Positions 6,946 to 20,000 of a DNA stretch of 20,000 nt are shown in pieces. The notes below the pieces were generated by a model. The model worked only from the letters and a program-made list of their open reading frames with translations. It was not told the DNA's origin and did not search any database. The DNA lies in IMG/VR virus record IMGVR_UViG_3300025605_000006. The stretch is one strand, 5' to 3'. Source of the DNA: an uncultured virus (IMG/VR IMGVR_UViG_3300025605_000006) (lineage: Duplodnaviria > Heunggongvirae > Uroviricota > Caudoviricetes). A program made the translations under genes and the position numbers. The first letter of the stretch is position 1, and the number at the start of each line of letters is the position of its first letter.

Positions 6946-7464
6946 ATGAGCAAGGCACCAGCCATAATCGTGGATCGGGACGGGACGCTAGCCTCGGTGG
7001 CACACGTCGCCCCCACCACAAGGGACCGGGACGCATGGAGAGAATACAACGCTGCTCTCCCATTCGACGCCCCAGTCCCCAACGTGGTCAACATGCTCAA
7101 CTGGGCACGCAGGACGCTCCCGGACGTCACGATCATCATGACATCGGGGCGGGCAGCGGGAGACTTCCCCGGAGATATCCGCAGGAAGCGCCACATGGAA
7201 GGGTGGATAGCGAAACACCGACTCCCCATAGACGTCCTTCACATGAGGGAGGGGGGGGACCAGCGTAGAGACTCCATCGTCAAAGCTGAGATGTTCCACT
7301 CCTTCATTGCTGACAAGTTCGACGTCCTCCTAGTCATAGACGACAGACCACAAGTCTGTGACCTGTGGAGAGACCTTGGACTTCCCCTCATCCAAGTGAA
7401 GGATCCGGGGATTCTTCCACCAATCGCAGAAATGTCTCGACAAGCGGCAACGGTAGCCCTATAG
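6946..7464 (+). CDS. HAD-superfamily phosphatase, similar to the 3'-phosphatase domain of T4 polynucleotide kinase (PseT)
   Basis: IIVDRDGTLA (DxDGT), TSGR, MREGGDQRRDSIVK, VIDDRPQV..LWR.LGL; leaderless promoter TTGACA 6910. Confidence 0.85.
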   Translation: MSKAPAIIVDRDGTLASVAHVAPTTRDRDAWREYNAALPFDAPVPNVVNMLNWARRTLPDVTIIMTSGRAAGDFPGDIRRKRHMEGWIAKHRLPIDVLHMREGGDQRRDSIVKAEMFHSFIADKFDVLLVIDDRPQVCDLWRDLGLPLIQVKDPGILPPIAEMSRQAATVAL

Positions 7465-9938: not shown

Positions 9939-9958
9939 GATCGAACGAGTGTTCGATC
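9939..9958. promoter_or_regulatory. consensus actinobacterial LexA SOS box
   Basis: GA-TCGAAC-GAGT-GTTCGA-TC. Confidence 0.7.
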
Positions 9959-10080
9959 GGACGGCCCCTAGCAGGTCCTCGGCCAGGAGTCAAATCGGAC
10001 GGCCCCTAGCAGGTCCTCGGCCAGGAGTCAAATCGGACGGCCCCTAGCAGGTCCTCGGCCAGGAGTCAAATCGGACGGCC
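9956..10080. repeat. 38-bp tandem repeat, 3.3 copies
   Basis: unit ATCGGACGGCCCCTAGCAGGTCCTCGGCCAGGAGTCAA at 9956, 9994, 10032, partial 10070. Confidence 0.95.
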
Positions 10081-10082
10081 GA

Positions 10083-10098
10083 TCGAACACCTGTTCGT
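10083..10098. promoter_or_regulatory. LexA SOS-box-like site
   Basis: TCGAAC-ACCT-GTTCGT. Confidence 0.65.
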
Positions 10099-12438: not shown

Positions 12439-12732
12439 TCAGTCCTCCAGGGTGGCAGCCAAGGCAGCCAGCTTCAGCTTCCACGAGTCCCTCACTGCCC
12501 GCTCGGTGTCCTCGTCGGGAGTGACGTCGTCCAGTTCGCTGCGGAGGGATCCGACAAGGTGTCGGTCCCACTCCCCGGAGGTCATGGGTTCACCGTCCCA
12601 CCATCGGGGGGCTGAGGTCCCCTGCGAGAGGCCCCCTGTGGAGGCCACAGCGTACAGCATGGAAGCCTGTCCTCCGTGCCATCCGACCGCTAGGTCCCGT
12701 TCCTGTTCGGTTGCCGTGTAGATCGTTGCCAT
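12439..12732 (-). CDS. hypothetical protein, 97 aa (WHGGQASMLYAVASTG motif)
   Basis: minus TTGACA 12767-17-TATCTT, leaderless. Confidence 0.8.
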   Translation of the reverse strand: MATIYTATEQERDLAVGWHGGQASMLYAVASTGGLSQGTSAPRWWDGEPMTSGEWDRHLVGSLRSELDDVTPDEDTERAVRDSWKLKLAALAATLED

Positions 12733-12826
12733 ACGTGAAAGATACCGAACCCCGAGGGGGATGTCAAGTGAAAGAATCAGAAAAAACAGCTTGACACTCT
12801 AGCGGGGCGGGTGTTACTGTTACTGC

Positions 12827-12847
12827 ATGAGCAAGCGACACGTCTAA
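12827..12847 (+). CDS. leaderless minigene MSKRHV (or remnant of an ardC-like 5' end)
   Basis: TTGACA 12791-18-TACTGT, ATG 6 nt later, TAA after 6 codons. Confidence 0.4.
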   Translation: MSKRHV

Positions 12848-12949
12848 CGGAGCGGTGCTCTACGGGTGAGCTAGACGGGACGCTCCTACGGGGGCTGTCC
12901 TGGTGTCCGGTCCCAAGGGACGGACAAGGGACAGTGTTGACGTCCAACT

Positions 12950-12972
12950 CTAAACCTCTAGTTGAGGTTGAC
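12950..12972. promoter_or_regulatory. MerR/FtsR-like palindrome (further copies at 14942, 15597, 15671, 15787, 18504 and in the terminal repeat)
   Basis: CTAAACCTC-TAGTT-GAGGTTGAC; consensus CTCAACCTC-N5-GAGGTTGAG. Confidence 0.6.
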
Positions 12973-13106
12973 GTGGGACGGGACGTCCGCTAGAGTGCTG
13001 GCGTCCTGGCGGTGTGGACTGTCCGGTCCGAGTGTTGTGTGTCTTGTCCTTGGGGACGGGGACCCTCGCCCTCGATGGGGGGGCTGAGGTTGACGGGACC
13101 CTCTTG

Positions 13107-13244
13107 TCAGAGGTAGTATTCGTCCTCTGGCGGGGGTTCCTCCAGGTCCTCGTCGTAGGGGTAGTCCATGGGGTCCCCTTCTGCGAGGTAGCGGTCCTCG
13201 TAGTAGGCTTCCAGCCAGTAGTCCGCTGCCATGTCCTCGTCCAT
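13107..13244 (-). CDS. extremely acidic Tyr-rich 45-aa protein MDEDMAADYWLEAYYEDRYLAEGDPMDYPYDEDLEEPPPEDEYYL
   Basis: directly follows upstream gene (alternative GTG 13250 overlaps its stop). Confidence 0.7.
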   Translation of the reverse strand: MDEDMAADYWLEAYYEDRYLAEGDPMDYPYDEDLEEPPPEDEYYL

Positions 13245-13246
13245 GG

Positions 13247-13396
13247 TCACCAGTCCTCCGCCCAAAAGTCGTCGCAGGTGCCCCATCCGATGGACTCGAA
13301 GGCTGATTCGGTCTCGAACATGAAGTCCAGGTCCGGCTCGGGGTCGTACTCCCCGAAGTCGGGCTCGTATCCGTCGGGCTCGTAGTCGTTGCTCAT
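13247..13396 (-). CDS. extremely acidic aromatic 49-aa protein (MSNDYEPDGYEPDFGEYD...)
   Basis: minus TTGACA 13432, leaderless ATG 13396; no K or R residues. Confidence 0.75.
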   Translation of the reverse strand: MSNDYEPDGYEPDFGEYDPEPDLDFMFETESAFESIGWGTCDDFWAEDW

Positions 13397-13503
13397 GTGT
13401 CTAGCTTGCCATAGGTGGGGGTAGCTTGTCAACCCCTAATGTTGGGTTATATCACCTAAAGATTCCACTTGACGCGACCCCCACCCCGTAGTACCTTCAA
13501 GTC

Positions 13504-13701
13504 ATGACACCGATGGAGTATGTCAAGTTCAAGAAGGCCTTCATGGGGATGGATCTCCCCGAGGAGACTCGGGGGCTCATCCTCGAACGCTCCGCCCAAC
13601 TGCGGGAGCGGGGCCACTCCCCAAGCTCCGCACTCAAGCGAGCCACGATGGAAAAGCGGGTGGTCGTCACCATCCCTCCCTACGATCCCTGGGAGGAGTG
13701 A
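13504..13701 (+). CDS. hypothetical protein, 65 aa
   Basis: TTGACG 13469-17-TACCTT, ATG 6 nt later. Confidence 0.75.
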   Translation: MTPMEYVKFKKAFMGMDLPEETRGLILERSAQLRERGHSPSSALKRATMEKRVVVTIPPYDPWEE

Positions 13702-13748
13702 TGGGCGGGGGCTTGACACCCCCACCCCCAACATGGTACAGTCCACTC

Positions 13749-13919
13749 ATGACAGAACGATGTCAGTGGGAAAACTGTCCCCGACCAGCAACCTGGGAAG
13801 TCCACTATGAGGACTACTACATCACCCTATGCGACAAGCACAAGGTCCGCAACGAGCGGGGGGACCAGTTCCTCCACGGACTGTCCCTAGGGACCGTCCT
13901 GGGGGCCATCTTTCGTTGA
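13749..13919 (+). CDS. Zn-finger microprotein, 56 aa
   Basis: TTGACA 13713-18-TACAGT; CQWENC...LCDKH. Confidence 0.75.
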   Translation: MTERCQWENCPRPATWEVHYEDYYITLCDKHKVRNERGDQFLHGLSLGTVLGAIFR

Positions 13920-13951
13920 CAAGGTAGAACTACCCGGCTAGACTAGGCCAC

Positions 13952-14116
13952 ATGAACTGTTTCGTGACCAACTGTAACGCTAAGGGTGTTACCCTTGACA
14001 ACCGGGGGCGAGTGTGCTGCAACGACTGCCGAGACTTTCTCGACACCCCTAGCACTCCCCACCGAACAATCCGAGAAAAATTCGGAAAACTGCTTGACGG
14101 GATCCCCTGGCGCTGA
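13952..14116 (+). CDS. Cys-rich microprotein, 54 aa (MNCFVTNC...CCNDC)
   Basis: TTGACA 13916-17-TAGACT, ATG 7 nt later. Confidence 0.65.
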   Translation: MNCFVTNCNAKGVTLDNRGRVCCNDCRDFLDTPSTPHRTIREKFGKLLDGIPWR

Positions 14117-14128
14117 TAAGGTACACAC

Positions 14129-14341
14129 ATGAACAACTTCACCACCAAGAACACCAACCGCAAGGCCCACCGGGACCACTCGCAGAAGGGTGGCACCGAG
14201 CGCCGCGAGGCACTCGACGCCCGAAACGGACGACGGCTCCGGGGCGGGGCGTTCGGGACGGAGGACGCCAAGGTGTTCAACCGCCTGGCAGTCGGGACAA
14301 CCGGCACCCCCCGACAGGAGAAGTCCGGAGAGGCAGCCTGA
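14129..14341 (+). CDS. basic hypothetical protein, 70 aa
   Basis: TTGACG 14094-17-TAAGGT, leaderless. Confidence 0.75.
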   Translation: MNNFTTKNTNRKAHRDHSQKGGTERREALDARNGRRLRGGAFGTEDAKVFNRLAVGTTGTPRQEKSGEAA

Positions 14342-14342
14342 G

Positions 14343-14513
14343 ATGGACCCCAAGGAGGACCCAGCAGGGGACTCCAAGGGGTCCCTTGAGGACTGGCTTG
14401 AGAAAGCGGACCAGGCCATCCACGAGTCCCTCTCCAACATGAAGGACCCGGTGGGGGCCGAGGTCCGCTGGCGCAACGCAAGAAAAGCCAGAAAAACCTC
14501 GAAAACCCCTTGA
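14343..14513 (+). CDS. hypothetical protein, 56 aa (MDPKEDPAGD...)
   Basis: ATG 1 nt after previous stop, GGAGAGG upstream. Confidence 0.5.
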   Translation: MDPKEDPAGDSKGSLEDWLEKADQAIHESLSNMKDPVGAEVRWRNARKARKTSKTP

Positions 14514-14544
14514 CAAGGCTAGCGGGGTGAGGTAAGTTGAACAC

Positions 14545-14748
14545 ATGAACAACGACACCAACCCCTACGAGCTGGCAGCACGCAACCTCAAGGCGGGCAA
14601 GCTGGCAGCCTACCTCGCCCGCAACAACATGGCGGATGTCAACCCTGACTCCCTGCACTGGGATACCCTCGCCATCCTGGCAGGCACCAACCCCCCGAGC
14701 GAGGCCACCAAGCTGGTCGTCATGGAGATGCTCCGGGCAGGCAGCTGA
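14545..14748 (+). CDS. hypothetical protein, 67 aa
   Basis: TTGACA 14510-17-TAAGTT, leaderless. Confidence 0.8.
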   Translation: MNNDTNPYELAARNLKAGKLAAYLARNNMADVNPDSLHWDTLAILAGTNPPSEATKLVVMEMLRAGS

Positions 14749-15025
14749 CCCCGGACCGTAAGACCCCCCCAAGGGGGGGGGCAGGTCCCGTGTCCGTCCC
14801 AAGAAAAGTCCTTGACAGGCAGAACTGTCCCTGCCACAATAAGGACAGAGGGGGAGAGAGGGCAGTCCCAGCGGACTGTCCGGTCCCAGGGACTATTCGT
14901 CCCGTCCCGTCCGTAAAGGACTGCTCGTCCGCTATCGGACCCTCAACCTAAGGTTGAGGTTTAGAGTCGAGAAAGTTTCAGAAAACCCCTTGACAAGGTT
15001 GGCGGGGGGCTGTATCTTCCTACAC

Positions 15026-15379
15026 ATGGCACGACTCACCGCTACCACCTTCCCCGCAATCGACGCCCTTCTTCGTGGGGGCCGAGACAAGATCGGGCAT
15101 AACACGACCGCTCGGCACGAGGGGGGCGACATTCTCGTTACCCTTCACCGCTCCGACATCGTGCGCCTGACCCCCACCGGGGAGGTGTTCGTCAACCTGC
15201 ACGGGTGGCACACCATCACCACCCGCGACCGCTTGAACCAGTTCGTTGCGGCCAACTTCCGCAGCGACGGCAACAGGGGCACCATCATGACCCGTGTGGA
15301 GAGCGACGGCACCGTCAAGGTTCGCCCCATCGGGGCGGGCTGGCATCTGGTCGCCACCGCCACCGGCCCCCAGTTCTGA
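15026..15379 (+). CDS. phage-type hypothetical protein, 117 aa (GWHTITTRDRLN motif)
   Basis: TTGACA 14990-17-TATCTT, ATG 15026. Confidence 0.8.
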   Translation: MARLTATTFPAIDALLRGGRDKIGHNTTARHEGGDILVTLHRSDIVRLTPTGEVFVNLHGWHTITTRDRLNQFVAANFRSDGNRGTIMTRVESDGTVKVRPIGAGWHLVATATGPQF

Positions 15380-15432
15380 AAAACCCGCTGAGTCTCCACT
15401 GTGCAACAGGCTAGCCTGAGCACAGAGTGAGA

Positions 15433-15473
15433 GGAAGCCCCCCGAAACCCCCCACAGGGGACGGGGGGCTTCC
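15433..15473 (+). terminator. strong GC hairpin, probable terminator
   Basis: GGAAGCCCCCCG / CGGGGGGCTTCC 12-bp stem. Confidence 0.5.
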
Positions 15474-15856
15474 ACAAAGTCCGGTCCCAAGGGACAGGAC
15501 CTTGCAGTAAAGCAAGTTCTATAAATCCCTAAAAATGAACTCGAACCATTGACAGGACCAGGACATCCAGTCATCATGAGCCGTCCGCCACCCGGACCAA
15601 CCCTCAAGTAGAGGTTGAGACCGGACGGGACGTCCAGCTAGGGTCCAGCGTCCGGTCCCAGGACAAGGACCCAACCCTCAAGTAGAGGTTGAGAGTTGAA
15701 CCGGGACAGGTCCGCTCTTAGACTGTTTCCGTCCAAGGGACTCGGACGTCCACTCGGGTCCTGTAGTCCAAGAAGGGGACAGGACTCTCAACCTCAAGTA
15801 AAGGTTTAGAGTCCTGTCCGTCCCTGGACTAGGTCAAGCGGGGGGACTGAGGGGGC

Positions 15857-16207
15857 TCAAGGAACGATGAAGTCCTCCAGCCCAACCCTTGACACTCGAT
15901 AGGCACTGTTGAGAAGTCGGGACTTGAGGATGTAATCCGCCCCAACGGGGTTCGCAGTATGAGCGAAGATGCACCCGATGTCCAGAGGGTCCTCGAAAAA
16001 CACTTTCTCCTCCAAGAAGTCCACTACTGGACGTATCGTGTCCTCTCCTCCGAGGTCGTGATCCAAATAGAGGGCATCCCAGGACTTCTGGACTTCTGGA
16101 CTCTCGGACTGGAGGACTTGAAGGGCGTCCTTCGATGTGCGAACATGGTGGACGTCGTGGCCAGGCTTGACCAAAGTCCGCTCGTCGTCTATCACCAAGA
16201 TCCTCAT
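15857..16207 (-). CDS. cyclic-phosphate-processing receiver-like domain protein, 116 aa
   Basis: MRILVIDDER, LYLDHDLG, HTANPVG motifs; minus TTGACG 16243 promoter. Confidence 0.75.
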   Translation of the reverse strand: MRILVIDDERTLVKPGHDVHHVRTSKDALQVLQSESPEVQKSWDALYLDHDLGGEDTIRPVVDFLEEKVFFEDPLDIGCIFAHTANPVGADYILKSRLLNSAYRVSRVGLEDFIVP

Positions 16208-16882
16208 GGGTCCAACATACAGCGCCCAAGGGGTGTTCGTCAAGCAAAAAGGGCGTCCCCAGCCTCAAAAACGTTCAACTCTGCCCATTCCCCCGCCAAA
16301 ACGGACTGAAGTCAATGGAAATCACAGTGTCCGTCCGTGGATTCGAGCCTAAAAACACTTGAACGAGGGGTTTGTCAAGGGTAAAACTGTCCTCGACCGG
16401 CTCGAAACCCTTGAATCTTCAAGGACAGTCCGGGCAAAACCCTTGAAAAGGGTTGACAGAGGGGGGAGCGGGCGCTTATACTGCCCCCAGGAGCCCGGAA
16501 ACCCTAAAAACAGTCAACTTTCCTTGCGCTCCTCACTGAAAAGGGATACAAGGAGGCCTTGTTTGCAGTTTAGGGACTCGTTTTTGCTTCAAAAACCCTC
16601 AAAACCCTTGACTTTGTCTCTTTGATGAGCGATTATCGGACGAAACTTTACCGAAAACGGTAAAGTCCTTGACGCGAGAGGGGTGTCCAAGCTAGTTTGG
16701 ACTGTGTGGAGGGGTTTGGGGCCGGGATAGCGGTCCGGTCCTCGGGACTGGACTGTTCTGGGTGTCTTTATAGCGTCCAGATGTCCGGACCGTCGTCTCT
16801 ATAGTGATATTGTCCGTCCCTGTCCTTGGTCCGTCCGGGGGTCCTCTCGTCCAGGTGGGGGTTGTGGTGGGGTCCGCGGAGG

Positions 16883-16918
16883 ACCTGAGAGACCGAACAG
16901 GTGTTCGGTCTCCCAGGT
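16883..16918. terminator. hairpin after minus-strand gene with an embedded SOS box
   Basis: ACCTG-AGAGACCGAAC-AGGT-GTTCGGTCTCC-CAGGT. Confidence 0.5.
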
Positions 16919-16919
16919 G

Positions 16920-17078
16920 TCATAGATCGTGCTCCTCTGCGCATGACTGACAGGCGATCCCATGCTCGCCCGGATCATCCCAGGTTGCGTATGCGATCGT
17001 GTAGGTGATCATGTCATCCTCGTTGTGCTCCTCTCCGCACATCTCGCACTGACAGTAGATGATTCGCTCGGTTTCCAT
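16920..17078 (-). CDS. acidic Zn-finger microprotein, 52 aa
   Basis: minus TTGACT 17114, leaderless ATG 17078; CEMC...CQSC. Confidence 0.75.
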   Translation of the reverse strand: METERIIYCQCEMCGEEHNEDDMITYTIAYATWDDPGEHGIACQSCAEEHDL

Positions 17079-17139
17079 GACTACATCTAACCATGAGCGA
17101 CTGAGCGAAGTCAACCCCTAATGTCGGGATATCTTGCCT

Positions 17140-17187
17140 ACGAACAGGTGTTCGATTGTCGGGCGGGTCGGACGAACATTTGTTCGG
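17140..17187. promoter_or_regulatory. pair of LexA SOS-box-like sites
   Basis: ACGAAC-AGGT-GTTCGA and ACGAAC-ATTT-GTTCGG between divergent promoters. Confidence 0.65.
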
Positions 17188-17267
17188 TCCCAAGAGTCCT
17201 GAGCGTCCTCTCAGGGTCCTCACAGAAAGTCCTTGACAAGCGTCCTCCTATAGTCCAAGATAGGGAC

Positions 17268-17456
17268 ATGGCTTCCAACAAGTTCCCCACCTATTGCATC
17301 GACTGCGACCGACAGGTCGGAGCAGGACACGCCCCGCTCCTCAAGGCCAAGGGACGTTGGGTCGTTGCGTGTCGCAACCTCTCGACCATCCCCACCTACG
17401 GGTCGGACGACGGGTACGATGCGATCAAGGACCGCATGCTGGAGGGAGGATGGTGA
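17268..17456 (+). CDS. Cys-containing microprotein, 62 aa (MASNKFPTYCIDC...)
   Basis: TTGACA 17233-17-CAAGAT, ATG 6 nt later. Confidence 0.75.
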   Translation: MASNKFPTYCIDCDRQVGAGHAPLLKAKGRWVVACRNLSTIPTYGSDDGYDAIKDRMLEGGW

Positions 17457-17605
17457 TGGTGCTACGTCGGACAGTGTGTCGACTGACAGGACACTACTGG
17501 GAGGACAGCGAGGTCGGACTGGAGTGTCTCGACCGGACCGTCCCGGTCGTTTCCAAGTGTCGACGTTGCGGTACCACCCGGACCGACTTTCGTCCAAAGA
17601 AGTAG
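17456..17605 (+). CDS. DUF1660-like Zn-binding phage microprotein
   Basis: TGATG overlap, GGAGG upstream; CRLTGHYW...CRRCG. Confidence 0.65.
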   Translation: MVLRRTVCRLTGHYWEDSEVGLECLDRTVPVVSKCRRCGTTRTDFRPKK

Positions 17606-17680
17606 CGCAGGACCGAACCCCGAACAGTCCAGTCCTGCGTCCAGTCCTCAAGGACGAGGACCGATTAGGTCTGTCCTCCG

Positions 17681-18163
17681 CTAGGTGAAACATCCCACAA
17701 GAAAGTCCTTGCAATCGTGAAACGGGGGGTCCATAATAGGGACATGAACAACAACGACACCGTAACCCCGGAGCAGCTGGCCGAGGCCGAGGCCATCCTG
17801 GCAGCTTCCCATGGCCGAGTCGGGACCCTCCCCACCGAGGACCTTCTCCCCATCCAAGCTGAGGCCAAGCTCGTGCTTGCCAAGCTCCGCCATCCTTCCA
17901 TGACCCGCGAGCATGGCGAGCTTCTTCTCACCGGACTGGTGCACTCGATCATCTCCGCTGAGGTCCGCAACCTTCCCCAGGCCCGGACCGTGCGAGTCGG
18001 GTCGGGACGCCGCGGCTTGTTCGGGCGCTGAGAGACCGGGGAGGGACCTACCCTCCCCGTCCTCCGTCCCCAGAGACGAGGACCGACAGGATCGTCCTTC
18101 GTCACTAGGTGAAACATCCCACAAGAAAGTCCTTGCAATCGTGAAACGGGGGGTCCATAATAG
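17681..18163 (+). repeat. 59-bp identical direct repeat (17681-17739 and 18105-18163), each a complete promoter module
   Basis: CTAGGTGAAACATCCCACAAGAAAGTCCTTGCAATCGTGAAACGGGGGGTCCATAATAG occurs twice. Confidence 0.95.
17744..18031 (+). CDS. hypothetical protein, 95 aa
   Basis: TTGCAA 17709-17-CATAAT, leaderless. Confidence 0.75.
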   Translation: MNNNDTVTPEQLAEAEAILAASHGRVGTLPTEDLLPIQAEAKLVLAKLRHPSMTREHGELLLTGLVHSIISAEVRNLPQARTVRVGSGRRGLFGR

Positions 18164-18167
18164 ACAC

Positions 18168-18416
18168 ATGGAAACACCCACCACGAACCCACAGACCCTA
18201 GTCGCCATGGACTGGGATCGGACCGACCCGAGCATCCAAGGAGTCCTCGACTTTGTGGGCGGTGCGCTGCTCTCCCACGAGAGGACGGCAGTGAAGCACT
18301 GGAGGACGGGGGAGGACGTGCCGACACATCGGGTCACGTTCGACGCCAGGAAGGTCCGCAACACTGAGGTCCATGGCGTTGCGTTCAGGTCGGGCTTTGT
18401 GTCTCACATAGAGTGA
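18168..18416 (+). CDS. hypothetical protein, 82 aa
   Basis: TTGCAA 18133-17-CATAAT, leaderless. Confidence 0.75.
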   Translation: METPTTNPQTLVAMDWDRTDPSIQGVLDFVGGALLSHERTAVKHWRTGEDVPTHRVTFDARKVRNTEVHGVAFRSGFVSHIE

Positions 18417-18625
18417 GTGAACCTAGGACCGGAGACCACCTAGAGTGGTCCTATGTCCGAGTCCCCAGGACGCATCCACTGTCCGGTCCCTAAGGACAGG
18501 ACTCTCAACCTCAAGTAAAGGTTTAGGGTCCACCCCGGACGTCCTCGCAGCCCGCCACAGTCCCCGTCCAACTAGGTGAAACATTCTGCTTGACAGGACG
18601 GAGCGTCCCATGGTTAGATGTGTGC

Positions 18626-19375
18626 ATGGAAACGACAGCCACCCAGACAATCGACAAGGCCGAGGCTGGACCCCTCAAGTTCTGGGTCGTCGGTGGGGCC
18701 GTCCGTGACGGCATCCTCGGGACCACAGTCAAGGACGTGGACTTCGCTGTGGAAGCTCCGTCCTTCACTGCGATGGTCGAGGGACTGGAGGGACTTGGCT
18801 TCAAGATATTCCAAGTCCGCGAGTCCTTCCTGACAGTTCGGGCGGGGGTCCCCAACGGACACGCTCTCCGCAAGGTCACCAAGGACGCTGATTTTGTGAT
18901 GTGTCGTGCCGATGGTCCTTCGACCGATGGGCGACGACCGGACTTTGTCACCCCCGGTACCATCCTTGACGATCTGAAGCGTAGGGACTTCACTGTGAAC
19001 GCCATGGCCCAGGACCCGGACGGTGGGCTGCTGGACCCCCATGGGGGACTGAAGGATCTTCGATCAAGGACCCTGAGGTTCGTCGGGGACCCCATGGAAC
19101 GCATCACCGAGGACGGGCTGAGGGTCCTCCGAGGCTTTCGCTTTATGGTCACAAAGACCATGACCCCGGACCCCGCCACGGACGCCGCGCTGCGCTCTGA
19201 GGTTGCTGCCGAGATGCTGGCAACGATCCCAGTCGAAAGGGTCCGCGAGGAAGTCCTCAAGATGTTCGAGGGGGACCCCGTTGCTCCCATGACTCTCATA
19301 GCAGGACTTCCCTCAAGGACCCAGGACGCCATCTTTCGGGATGGGCTGAGGTTGACCCCTAGCCTCAAGCAGTGA
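18626..19375 (+). CDS. cca: class II tRNA nucleotidyltransferase (CCA-adding/poly(A) polymerase family), short 249-aa form
   Basis: VVGGAVRD...KDVDF, RRDFTVNAMA, DPHGG, EDGLRVLRGFRF, ERVREE; promoter TTGACA 18590. Confidence 0.9.
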   Translation: METTATQTIDKAEAGPLKFWVVGGAVRDGILGTTVKDVDFAVEAPSFTAMVEGLEGLGFKIFQVRESFLTVRAGVPNGHALRKVTKDADFVMCRADGPSTDGRRPDFVTPGTILDDLKRRDFTVNAMAQDPDGGLLDPHGGLKDLRSRTLRFVGDPMERITEDGLRVLRGFRFMVTKTMTPDPATDAALRSEVAAEMLATIPVERVREEVLKMFEGDPVAPMTLIAGLPSRTQDAIFRDGLRLTPSLKQ

Positions 19376-19437
19376 CCGCGAGAATAGGTCATATGACCTA
19401 GTTGACAGTCCGTCGGTTCTAGTGTTCAATGGTCTAC

Positions 19438-19629
19438 ATGGAACACCACATCGACCCCATCGACTCGGCCATTCTGAGGCTCCGCTTCAGTGGTCGTTCC
19501 CTCGACTCCACTGCCGAGGTCATGGAGTCGGACCCGCGACTGGTTCGACTTCGGGAGGCCAAGGCCATGAACGCTCTTCGGACCGCGGGTTTCTCCGATG
19601 GGGAGATTCGCGACCACTTCGGGCGCTGA
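19438..19629 (+). CDS. standalone sigma70 region-4-like HTH protein, 63 aa
   Basis: ILRLRF..RSLDSTAEVM....VRLREAKAMNALR resembles sigma region 4.2; TTGACA 19402-17-TTCAAT. Confidence 0.65.
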   Translation: MEHHIDPIDSAILRLRFSGRSLDSTAEVMESDPRLVRLREAKAMNALRTAGFSDGEIRDHFGR

Positions 19630-19721
19630 ACCCCGGCCCGATCCGGACAAGGCCGAAAGGCTAGACCGGATCGGGCTACCGTCCTGGCGCTAGGGGCGCT
19701 ACCGTTCTGGCAGGCCAGATC

Positions 19722-20000
19722 GTCCTGGTGTCCAGCCCGTAGGGACCCGGACGCTAACCCTCAAGTTGAGGTCGAGAGCGGACCGGGACGTCCCCTCGGG
19801 TCCTGGTGTCCAGCCCGTAGGGACCCGGACGCTAACCCTCAAGTTGAGGTCGAGAGCGGACCGGGACGTCCCCTCGGGTCCTGGTGTACAGTCCGTAGGG
19901 ACCCGGACGCTAACCCTCAAGTTGAGGTCGAGAGCGGACCGGGACGTCCCCTCGGGTCCTGGTGTCCAGCCCGTAGGGACCCGGACGCTAACCCTCAAGT
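19722..20000. repeat. 78-bp tandem repeat, at least 3.5 copies, running off the window
   Basis: units at 19722, 19800, 19878 (2 substitutions), 19956; each contains CTAACCCTCAAGTTGAGGTCGAG. Confidence 0.95.

Follow-up and report, generated by a model that had tools for sequence, protein, structure and literature searches.

A 20,000-nt stretch of DNA from an uncultured virus of the Caudoviricetes (IMG/VR record IMGVR_UViG_3300025605_000006), hereafter the window, carries about ten copies of a short palindromic box between position 12946 and its end. Comparison with bacterial genomes strongly supports that these boxes are operators of the type recognised by FtsR (Cg1631/Rv1828), the MerR-family activator of the cell division gene ftsZ in Actinobacteria, and it is probable, judging by the sequences, that FtsR binds them. 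The reading that we favour, tentatively and at slightly less than an even chance, is that the boxes act as a sink for the FtsR of the host on phage DNA, with some local regulation allowed.

Over the whole window nine matches to CTCAACCTC-N5-GAGGTTGAG with up to three mismatches were found, starting at 12950, 14942, 15597, 15671, 15787, 18504, 19754, 19832 and 19910, and a tenth palindrome that starts at 19988 is cut off by the window end. The chance expectation for this count is 0.01, and none of 200 dinucleotide-preserving shuffles reached nine. The initial annotation had proposed about ten palindromes, dispersed and in tandem, and these counts bear it out; its positions stand for the dispersed copies, those of the tandem copies being one base off. 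It had read the box as two 9-nt arms around a 5-nt centre, but its natural register is an imperfect inverted repeat of 25 bp, AACCCTCAA-N7-TTGAGGGTT. The window copies match the 25-mer AACCCTCAAGTAGAGGTTGAGGGTT, a consensus of the FtsR type, for which a site from Corynebacterium glutamicum is published, at 17-24 of 25 positions. Upstream of 12946 no window copy reaches 16/25.

The nearest record is a 148,553-bp IMG/VR phage contig (G001), to which the window maps at 126.8-146.4 kb with 90-99% identity. The first box of the window (12946-12972, minus strand) is inverted with respect to the others, matching at 20/25 on the minus strand against 18/25 on the plus strand, and corresponds in reverse complement to the G001 box at 144969-144993. 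All the others are on the plus strand. The box at 14938-14968 reads gACCCTCAA-N7-TTGAGGtTT, with both outer arms present and 19/25 on either strand. Three more follow in close succession: 15599-15623 (21/25; repeat family D3), in a gene-free stretch and first member of a degenerate 74-bp tandem pair; 15673-15697, at 24/25 the best copy of the window, with a G001 counterpart that differs by one mismatch; and 15789-15813 (19/25; repeat family D2), within a 45-bp extended palindrome at 15777-15821. The box at 18506-18530 (20/25) lies about 108 bp upstream of the leaderless start (18626) of a gene for a CCA-adding enzyme. The remaining copies belong to a 78-bp tandem array at 19722-20000 (repeat family D1; 3.6 copies, 98% matches, truncated by the window end), which has one box per unit (19756-19780, 19834-19858, 19912-19936 and a partial one from 19990), each of the variant AACCCTCAAGTTGAGGTCGAG and at 20/25. 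Orientation is nearly uniform, with 8 of the 9 window copies and 9 of the 10 clustered G001 copies on one strand sense.

In C. glutamicum, FtsR's site at the promoter of ftsZ is AACCCTAAAGTAAAGGTTGAGGGTA, an imperfect 25-bp inverted repeat centred at -73; according to the available text of that study (PMC6683498) it was found by chromatin affinity purification and sequencing (ChAP-Seq), purified FtsR binds it in vitro in electrophoretic mobility shift assays (EMSA), a similar sequence is present in the ftsZ promoter of Mycobacterium tuberculosis, and ftsZ expression in C. glutamicum falls when ftsR is lost. The phage boxes share with this operator, as far as that text describes it, the same 25-bp imperfect inverted repeat, asymmetric centre included (PMC6683498). 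They fit the description of an FtsR-type operator as a 25-bp imperfect inverted repeat matching AACCCTnAAGTAnAGGTTGAGGGTn, and the comparison with the published motif, which the initial annotation had suggested as a check, gives the same 17-24 positions. The likeness to the FtsR site that it proposed is right, and stronger than it could have known: the best copy matches the consensus at 24 of 25 positions, and between the commonest form in the window, the 21-mer AACCCTCAAGTAGAGGTTGAG, and the published ftsZ site there are two differences in 21 positions. This 21-mer is found unchanged directly upstream of ftsZ in a Georgenia genome and in a Solirubrobacterales genome. The phage boxes differ from the ftsZ operator in being phage-borne and not placed before ftsZ, in numbering about ten instead of one, some in tandem, and in lacking the outer right arm in most window copies and any shared promoter distance. 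Sites of IdeR/DtxR or HspR (the HspR-associated inverted repeat, HAIR) seem unlikely candidates, as they have a different arm order and spacing.

When one genome per species (185,579 species) was scanned with the pattern AACCCTNAAGTANAGGTTGAG, 44 loci were obtained, mostly from Corynebacterium, with four from Georgenia, others from Solirubrobacterales and other Actinomycetota, and about eight from unrelated phyla. The FtsZ signature GGGTG[ST]G is found 362-526 bp downstream on the same strand in 32 of these loci and is missing within 1.8 kb from the remaining 12. The C. glutamicum representative is absent from the 44 loci, although the published site fits the pattern. In all three genomes analysed with Pfam, the sole gene with an FtsZ/tubulin domain lies 76-204 bp past the motif. 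Furthermore, 13 of 30 loci sampled from the phylum have a match of at least 17/25 within 500 bp upstream of ftsZ, against 0 of 30 for a control inside the gene, indicating that this type of box is widespread but variable among taxa.

The phage carries such sites in excess of the host chromosome, as a decoy array would. Sites with up to three mismatches to the 25-mer number four in the 148 kb of G001, and exactly one, at ftsZ, in each of three host genomes of 2.7-4.1 Mb. Among 401 sampled Actinomycetota genomes (three of them flagged as unpublished, all three counting as zeros), 393 lack such a site, seven carry a single one and one carries three, and a reversed-pattern control gave none; the FtsZ signature adjoins 3 of these 10 sites. 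The boxes are also clustered. At 19/25 or better, 10 of the 11 distinct G001 sites lie within 141152-147395, several more being located past the point where the window ends. When ten paralogous copies were aligned with 30-bp flanks, the mean column identity was 58% and 12 of the 16 invariant columns fell in the box core. At 16/25 or better G001 has 52 matches, against 6-20 in 20 block shuffles, which give the background at this threshold. The sole G001 site of at least 19/25 outside the cluster (33228-33252, AACCCTAACCTTCAAGGTGAGGGTT) has perfect outer arms and lies in the tail-gene region, apparently within an open reading frame (ORF).

Single boxes were found in 33 other IMG/VR phage contigs, one each, in about 16 distinct flank contexts and at 45-70% G+C, while a narrower exact search for the box gave 15 contigs. 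Only the lineage of the window and G001 has the box amplified. In one group of seven of the other contigs the box is within a coding repeat, and in the rest it is non-coding. The exact variant CAACCTCAAGTAAAGGTTTAG matched no IMG/VR contig, and the variant of the array matched one, the unrelated contig L115. The box of contig L035, used as a 31-nt and a 45-nt query in blastn against isolated phages, returned nothing or chance-level matches inside genes (E of at least 0.06). In contig L032, from an unrelated phage, a full FtsR-type box at about position 1500 has a LexA-type box (GAACATATGTTC) on one side and repeats of the DnaA-box-like word TTATCCACA on the other, an arrangement that resembles a hub of host-factor sites. 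Megablast of positions 12900-20000 of the window against 50,697 phage records gave no match; distant blastn of 17200-20000 matched only the CCA-enzyme gene of two Synechococcus phages, and a search for relatives in IMG/VR through this enzyme gave none.

The array has changed in copy number between two phages that are elsewhere 94-99% identical. The window holds at least 3.6 units of 78 bp against two in G001 (boxes at 146227 and 146305, AACCCTCAAGTAGAGGTTGAGGGTG, 24/25); the unit sequences differ and the box is kept in both. The window units read GGTCGAG where others read GGTTGAG, a variant that some high-G+C genomes also have upstream of ftsZ. Tandem duplication of units is seen at two periods, 74 bp and 78 bp.

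The phage itself seems to lack a MerR-family regulator for these sites. When G001 was searched in six frames, none of the models MerR_1, MerR and HTH_17 matched above the cut-off. Among 150 G001 ORFs of at least 100 aa (of 167 picked) and 51 window ORFs, none coded for a MerR-family or other clear operator-binding protein, and none of 41 ORFs beside ten boxes of other phage contigs was MerR-like. Weak helix-turn-helix matches in G001 fall in two proteins, an HNH homing endonuclease and one of 149 aa that combines a helix-turn-helix with a zinc ribbon (endonuclease VII/Lar type). An HNH endonuclease of 229 aa with two helix-turn-helix motifs is encoded at 43428-44117 of G001 on the minus strand, antisense within an open frame of 1814 aa (40520-45964, plus strand) that has LAGLIDADG and Hint/intein domains. 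Because no such regulator was found encoded by the phage, the binder is most likely host FtsR, and as the box is common to such different phages, a conserved host protein is the simpler candidate. Several signs point to an actinobacterial host: leaderless genes, LexA-type boxes and a G001 capsid closest to those of Brevibacterium and Gordonia phages (46-49% identity).

The region of the boxes is dense in promoters, with 13 sigma-70-like promoters in 12800-20000 against 1.3 expected. At least 15 small genes in it have their ATG 6-7 nt past the -10 element and so would give leaderless messages, an actinobacterial habit. The initial annotation described the boxes as mostly away from promoter cores, in agreement with what we find: one copy overlaps a -35 element, another lies 26 bp upstream of one, and the remaining boxes are in gene-free stretches or at least 65 bp from a -35, there being no common distance between box and promoter. 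No gene lies behind the boxes 15599, 15673 and 15789 or behind the whole array within the window; in G001 a small gene begins about 190 bp past the array.

With the host's own FtsR as binder, the proposed mechanism would run as follows. The host chromosome would offer one site of such quality, at most a few, against about ten in 6-7 kb of promoter-dense phage DNA, and the most likely net effect would be that FtsR is drawn onto the phage. Replication of the phage would set hundreds to thousands of such sites in competition with the one at ftsZ. Since FtsR activates ftsZ, as the available text of the C. glutamicum study has it (PMC6683498), a sink growing along with the phage DNA would reduce transcription of ftsZ and hold division back. 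One or two boxes near phage promoters may at the same time let FtsR tune those promoters. The lack of a common promoter distance, the gene-free boxes, the tandem duplication and the change in array copy number fit a sink better than promoter operators, and the copy number of the boxes and the failure to find a phage MerR gene are, like the tandem amplification and the absence of a fixed promoter geometry, consistent with a sponge. Titration of FtsR and an effect on division are a plausible hypothesis, with good circumstantial support. The more specific scenario, in which a lytic actinophage carries a sponge of ten or more FtsR sites that strips the protein from its single chromosomal site and shuts division down, possibly together with the LexA-type boxes of the same region, seems to us doubtful, if worth keeping in mind.

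Several observations weigh against a sink. The outer right arm is missing from most window copies (TTGAGaccg replaces TTGAGGGTT); these match at only 17-21/25, so that their affinity may be low. The near-uniform orientation would be irrelevant to a pure decoy, though descent by duplication could explain it. Lower ftsZ transcription would act slowly on the FtsZ protein, which makes a benefit within one infection cycle uncertain. The right half of the box at 12946-12972 provides the -35 of a predicted plus-strand promoter, TTGACG-17-TAGAGT (12968-12996), and the box at 14938-14962, 26 bp before the -35 at 14990, has its centre (14950) 76 bp upstream of the ATG of the leaderless gene at 15026, a distance near that of the activating C. 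glutamicum site (-73), which speaks against a pure decoy. Every box is placed within a conserved GGAC/GTCC module of about 75-110 bp, which suggests a multi-protein assembly and not a bare sponge; another factor probably binds beside the boxes. Finally, the small early phage proteins belong to no known families, and some of them, with no known fold, could be the binders of the boxes.

The strongest of the competing explanations, unlikely in our estimation, is that the boxes are cis-regulatory operators only, to which host FtsR would be recruited to activate or time particular early transcripts, any titration of the pool being incidental. The two promoter-linked boxes speak for it, and the copy at 15599 has TAGGGT at the same spacing as the -10 of the promoter that box 12946-12972 completes. 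The nearly uniform orientation agrees with it as well, and so do the single boxes that other phages have in non-coding control regions; LexA-type and DnaA-box-like repeats adjoin one of these. Wiring to host factors is made plausible by the LexA-type boxes of the region. Those reported in the initial annotation are real: seven sites with up to one mismatch were found window-wide against 0.79 expected, and three perfect ones (CGAAC-N4-GTTCG at 16894, 17141 and 17173, spanning 16894-17186) flank a small minus-strand gene. The promoters next to the boxes, however, are near consensus (10-11 of 12 positions) and should need no activator, and the distance from a box to the next start ranges from about 40 to more than 190 bp. 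The leaderless 117-aa gene at 15026, whose promoter is TTGACA-17-TATCTT (promoter and gene at 14990-15376, plus strand; PHROG families of unknown function), is the only one with a box at an activator-like distance. The array units read TCGGGT in place of a -10 and TCGAGA in place of a -35. Neither the three boxes at 15599-15813 nor the array has a gene behind it within the window, and cis-regulation hardly accounts for an operator that is amplified in tandem without one.

Less probable still is that the boxes belong to a nucleoprotein module of the phage (for example an origin, packaging site or organiser of the early region), bound by a phage-encoded protein alone or together with a second factor on the GGAC repeats; resemblance to the FtsR operator would in that case be convergent, or would let the phage protein occupy the ftsZ promoter. 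The modules around the boxes speak for it. In general they have GTCCGGTCCC-AA-GGGAC on the upstream side of the box and GGACGGGACGTCC-N-CTAGGGTCC on the downstream side; one example at 12890-13007 (plus strand; repeat families D3, D4, D5 and D9) has GTCCGGTCCC-AA-GGGAC upstream and GGACGGGACGTCC-N-CTAGAGT downstream. GGAC/GTCC is enriched 3-5 times in the final 16 kb of G001, and the cluster of boxes is near the end of that record, adjoining AT-richer DNA and further LexA-type boxes. In other phages a single box can stand beside iteron-like or DnaA-box-like repeats, in one case just past a gene of the DUF5906 primase-helicase type, and the many small early proteins without known fold leave room for a phage binder. 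Against this, the searches of phage ORFs brought up no regulator of the MerR type or of another clear sequence-specific kind, and some 16 unrelated phage contexts would need one and the same phage protein, while FtsR is conserved across hosts. The identity with the ftsZ sites also reaches the asymmetric centre GTAGAGG, which convergence does not predict.

The distribution of these repeats in G001 is uneven. GGAC/GTCC counts per 4 kb are 113-187 at 132-148 kb against about 35-40 elsewhere, and the words are nearly missing from 100-112 kb (1-12 per 4 kb). Enriched in the window are the words GTCCGGTC, GGACGGAC, GGACAGGAC and GGACGTCC. The two ends of G001 (1-200 and 148500-148553) share the repeat family GGCCCTGG / GGTGCTCGCCCTCGGC, so that the assembly may be circular or terminally redundant, with its break inside a repeat.

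It is very improbable that the boxes are structural or recombinational repeats, that is hairpins of RNA or single-stranded DNA or short homologies for the exchange of gene cassettes, given that conservation is in the sequence and not in the pairing and that such a role offers no explanation of the identity with ftsZ-promoter sites. In its favour, the 497-bp segment that G001 lacks has its end within box 12946-12972, the copy at 15777-15821 is predicted to form a strong hairpin (z-score -5.6), and assemblies from other samples break at the boxes, as they would at repeats. That hairpin belongs to one copy alone; the pairing register varies by copy, and in two of six segments folding does not exceed that of shuffled sequence (z-scores of -1.1 and -1.2). 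An RNA hairpin or intrinsic terminator is not supported, as there is no common stem-loop across copies, and no U-tract or terminator-like site was found at any box; Rfam gave only two matches, both far below gathering scores. The RNA-library contigs on the region are patchy, give no starts or strand and may be DNA, and neither their gaps over the boxes nor the higher depth of the 108-bp repeat contigs was used as evidence.

The sink for host FtsR that we favour can be compared with known systems. In the literature searched no description of FtsR-type boxes on phage genomes was found, and a full-text search for FtsR together with phage gave no paper linking the two, the co-mentions being incidental as judged by title and start of abstract. 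Host LexA (SOS) boxes and DnaA boxes occur on phage genomes, and the boxes of the window are like them in that the operator of a host regulator is on the phage and a host protein would bind phage DNA. Those known cases have few copies, at particular promoters or origins, whereas here it is the site of a cell-division regulator that has been amplified. Cluster A mycobacteriophages have stoperators, many dispersed copies of an operator, mostly in one orientation, to which the phage's own repressor binds. The boxes resemble them in being many copies of a short operator mostly in one orientation. Stoperators are asymmetric, genome-wide and bound by a phage repressor, unlike the boxes, which are clustered in 6-7 kb and match a host operator, and for which the MerR-family searches of G001 and the window ORFs found no cognate phage protein. 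Decoy arrays of tandem activator sites have been built in yeast, where, in the available text of that work, they sequester the activator and lower target expression (PMC3322331). Compared with those synthetic constructs, as described there, the array of the window is natural and phage-borne and has a host regulator as putative target (PMC3322331).

As for the rest of its gene content, G001 codes for a portal, an HK97-type capsid, a tape measure protein, RecA and DnaB, and also for a class II ribonucleotide reductase and ThyX with inteins, a peptide deformylase and glycosyltransferases. Genes of RNA-repair type are present in the window at 6946-7461, 15860-16243 (minus strand) and 18590-19372, and in G001 at 13737-14546; the set comprises a PNKP-type HAD phosphatase, a cREC_REC receiver domain (cyclic-phosphate processing) and the CCA-adding enzyme, with an RlaP nucleotidyltransferase in G001, and may be a tRNA-repair counter-defence. 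The 497-bp segment absent from G001 (12463-12959 in the window, 139177/139178 in G001) carries a leaderless 97-aa gene on the minus strand, and its right edge is the one that falls inside the first box. A promoter region of 66 bp is duplicated with 97% identity at 17681-17746 and 18105-18170, before two different small genes (repeat family D7). Between 16250 and 16700 there are several promoter-like sites and CCCTTGA repeats and no convincing gene, and at 9941-10097 a perfect tandem repeat (38-bp unit, 3.3 copies) stands between the LexA-type boxes TCGAACGAGTGTTCGA and TCGAACACCTGTTCG. The phage is present in activated-sludge, wastewater and freshwater metagenomes from 12 studies, as seen in sequencing runs.

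Phages are known to block division of the host by means of proteins directed at FtsZ or its partners. If the sink proposed here is true, this phage would have a takeover device of a different kind, built of DNA sites instead of protein. The comparison also provides an independent confirmation of the FtsR motif proposed for C. glutamicum, and the presence of FtsR-type boxes in at least 33 uncultivated phage contigs suggests that this little-studied actinobacterial regulator of division is one through which phages and their hosts repeatedly come into contact.

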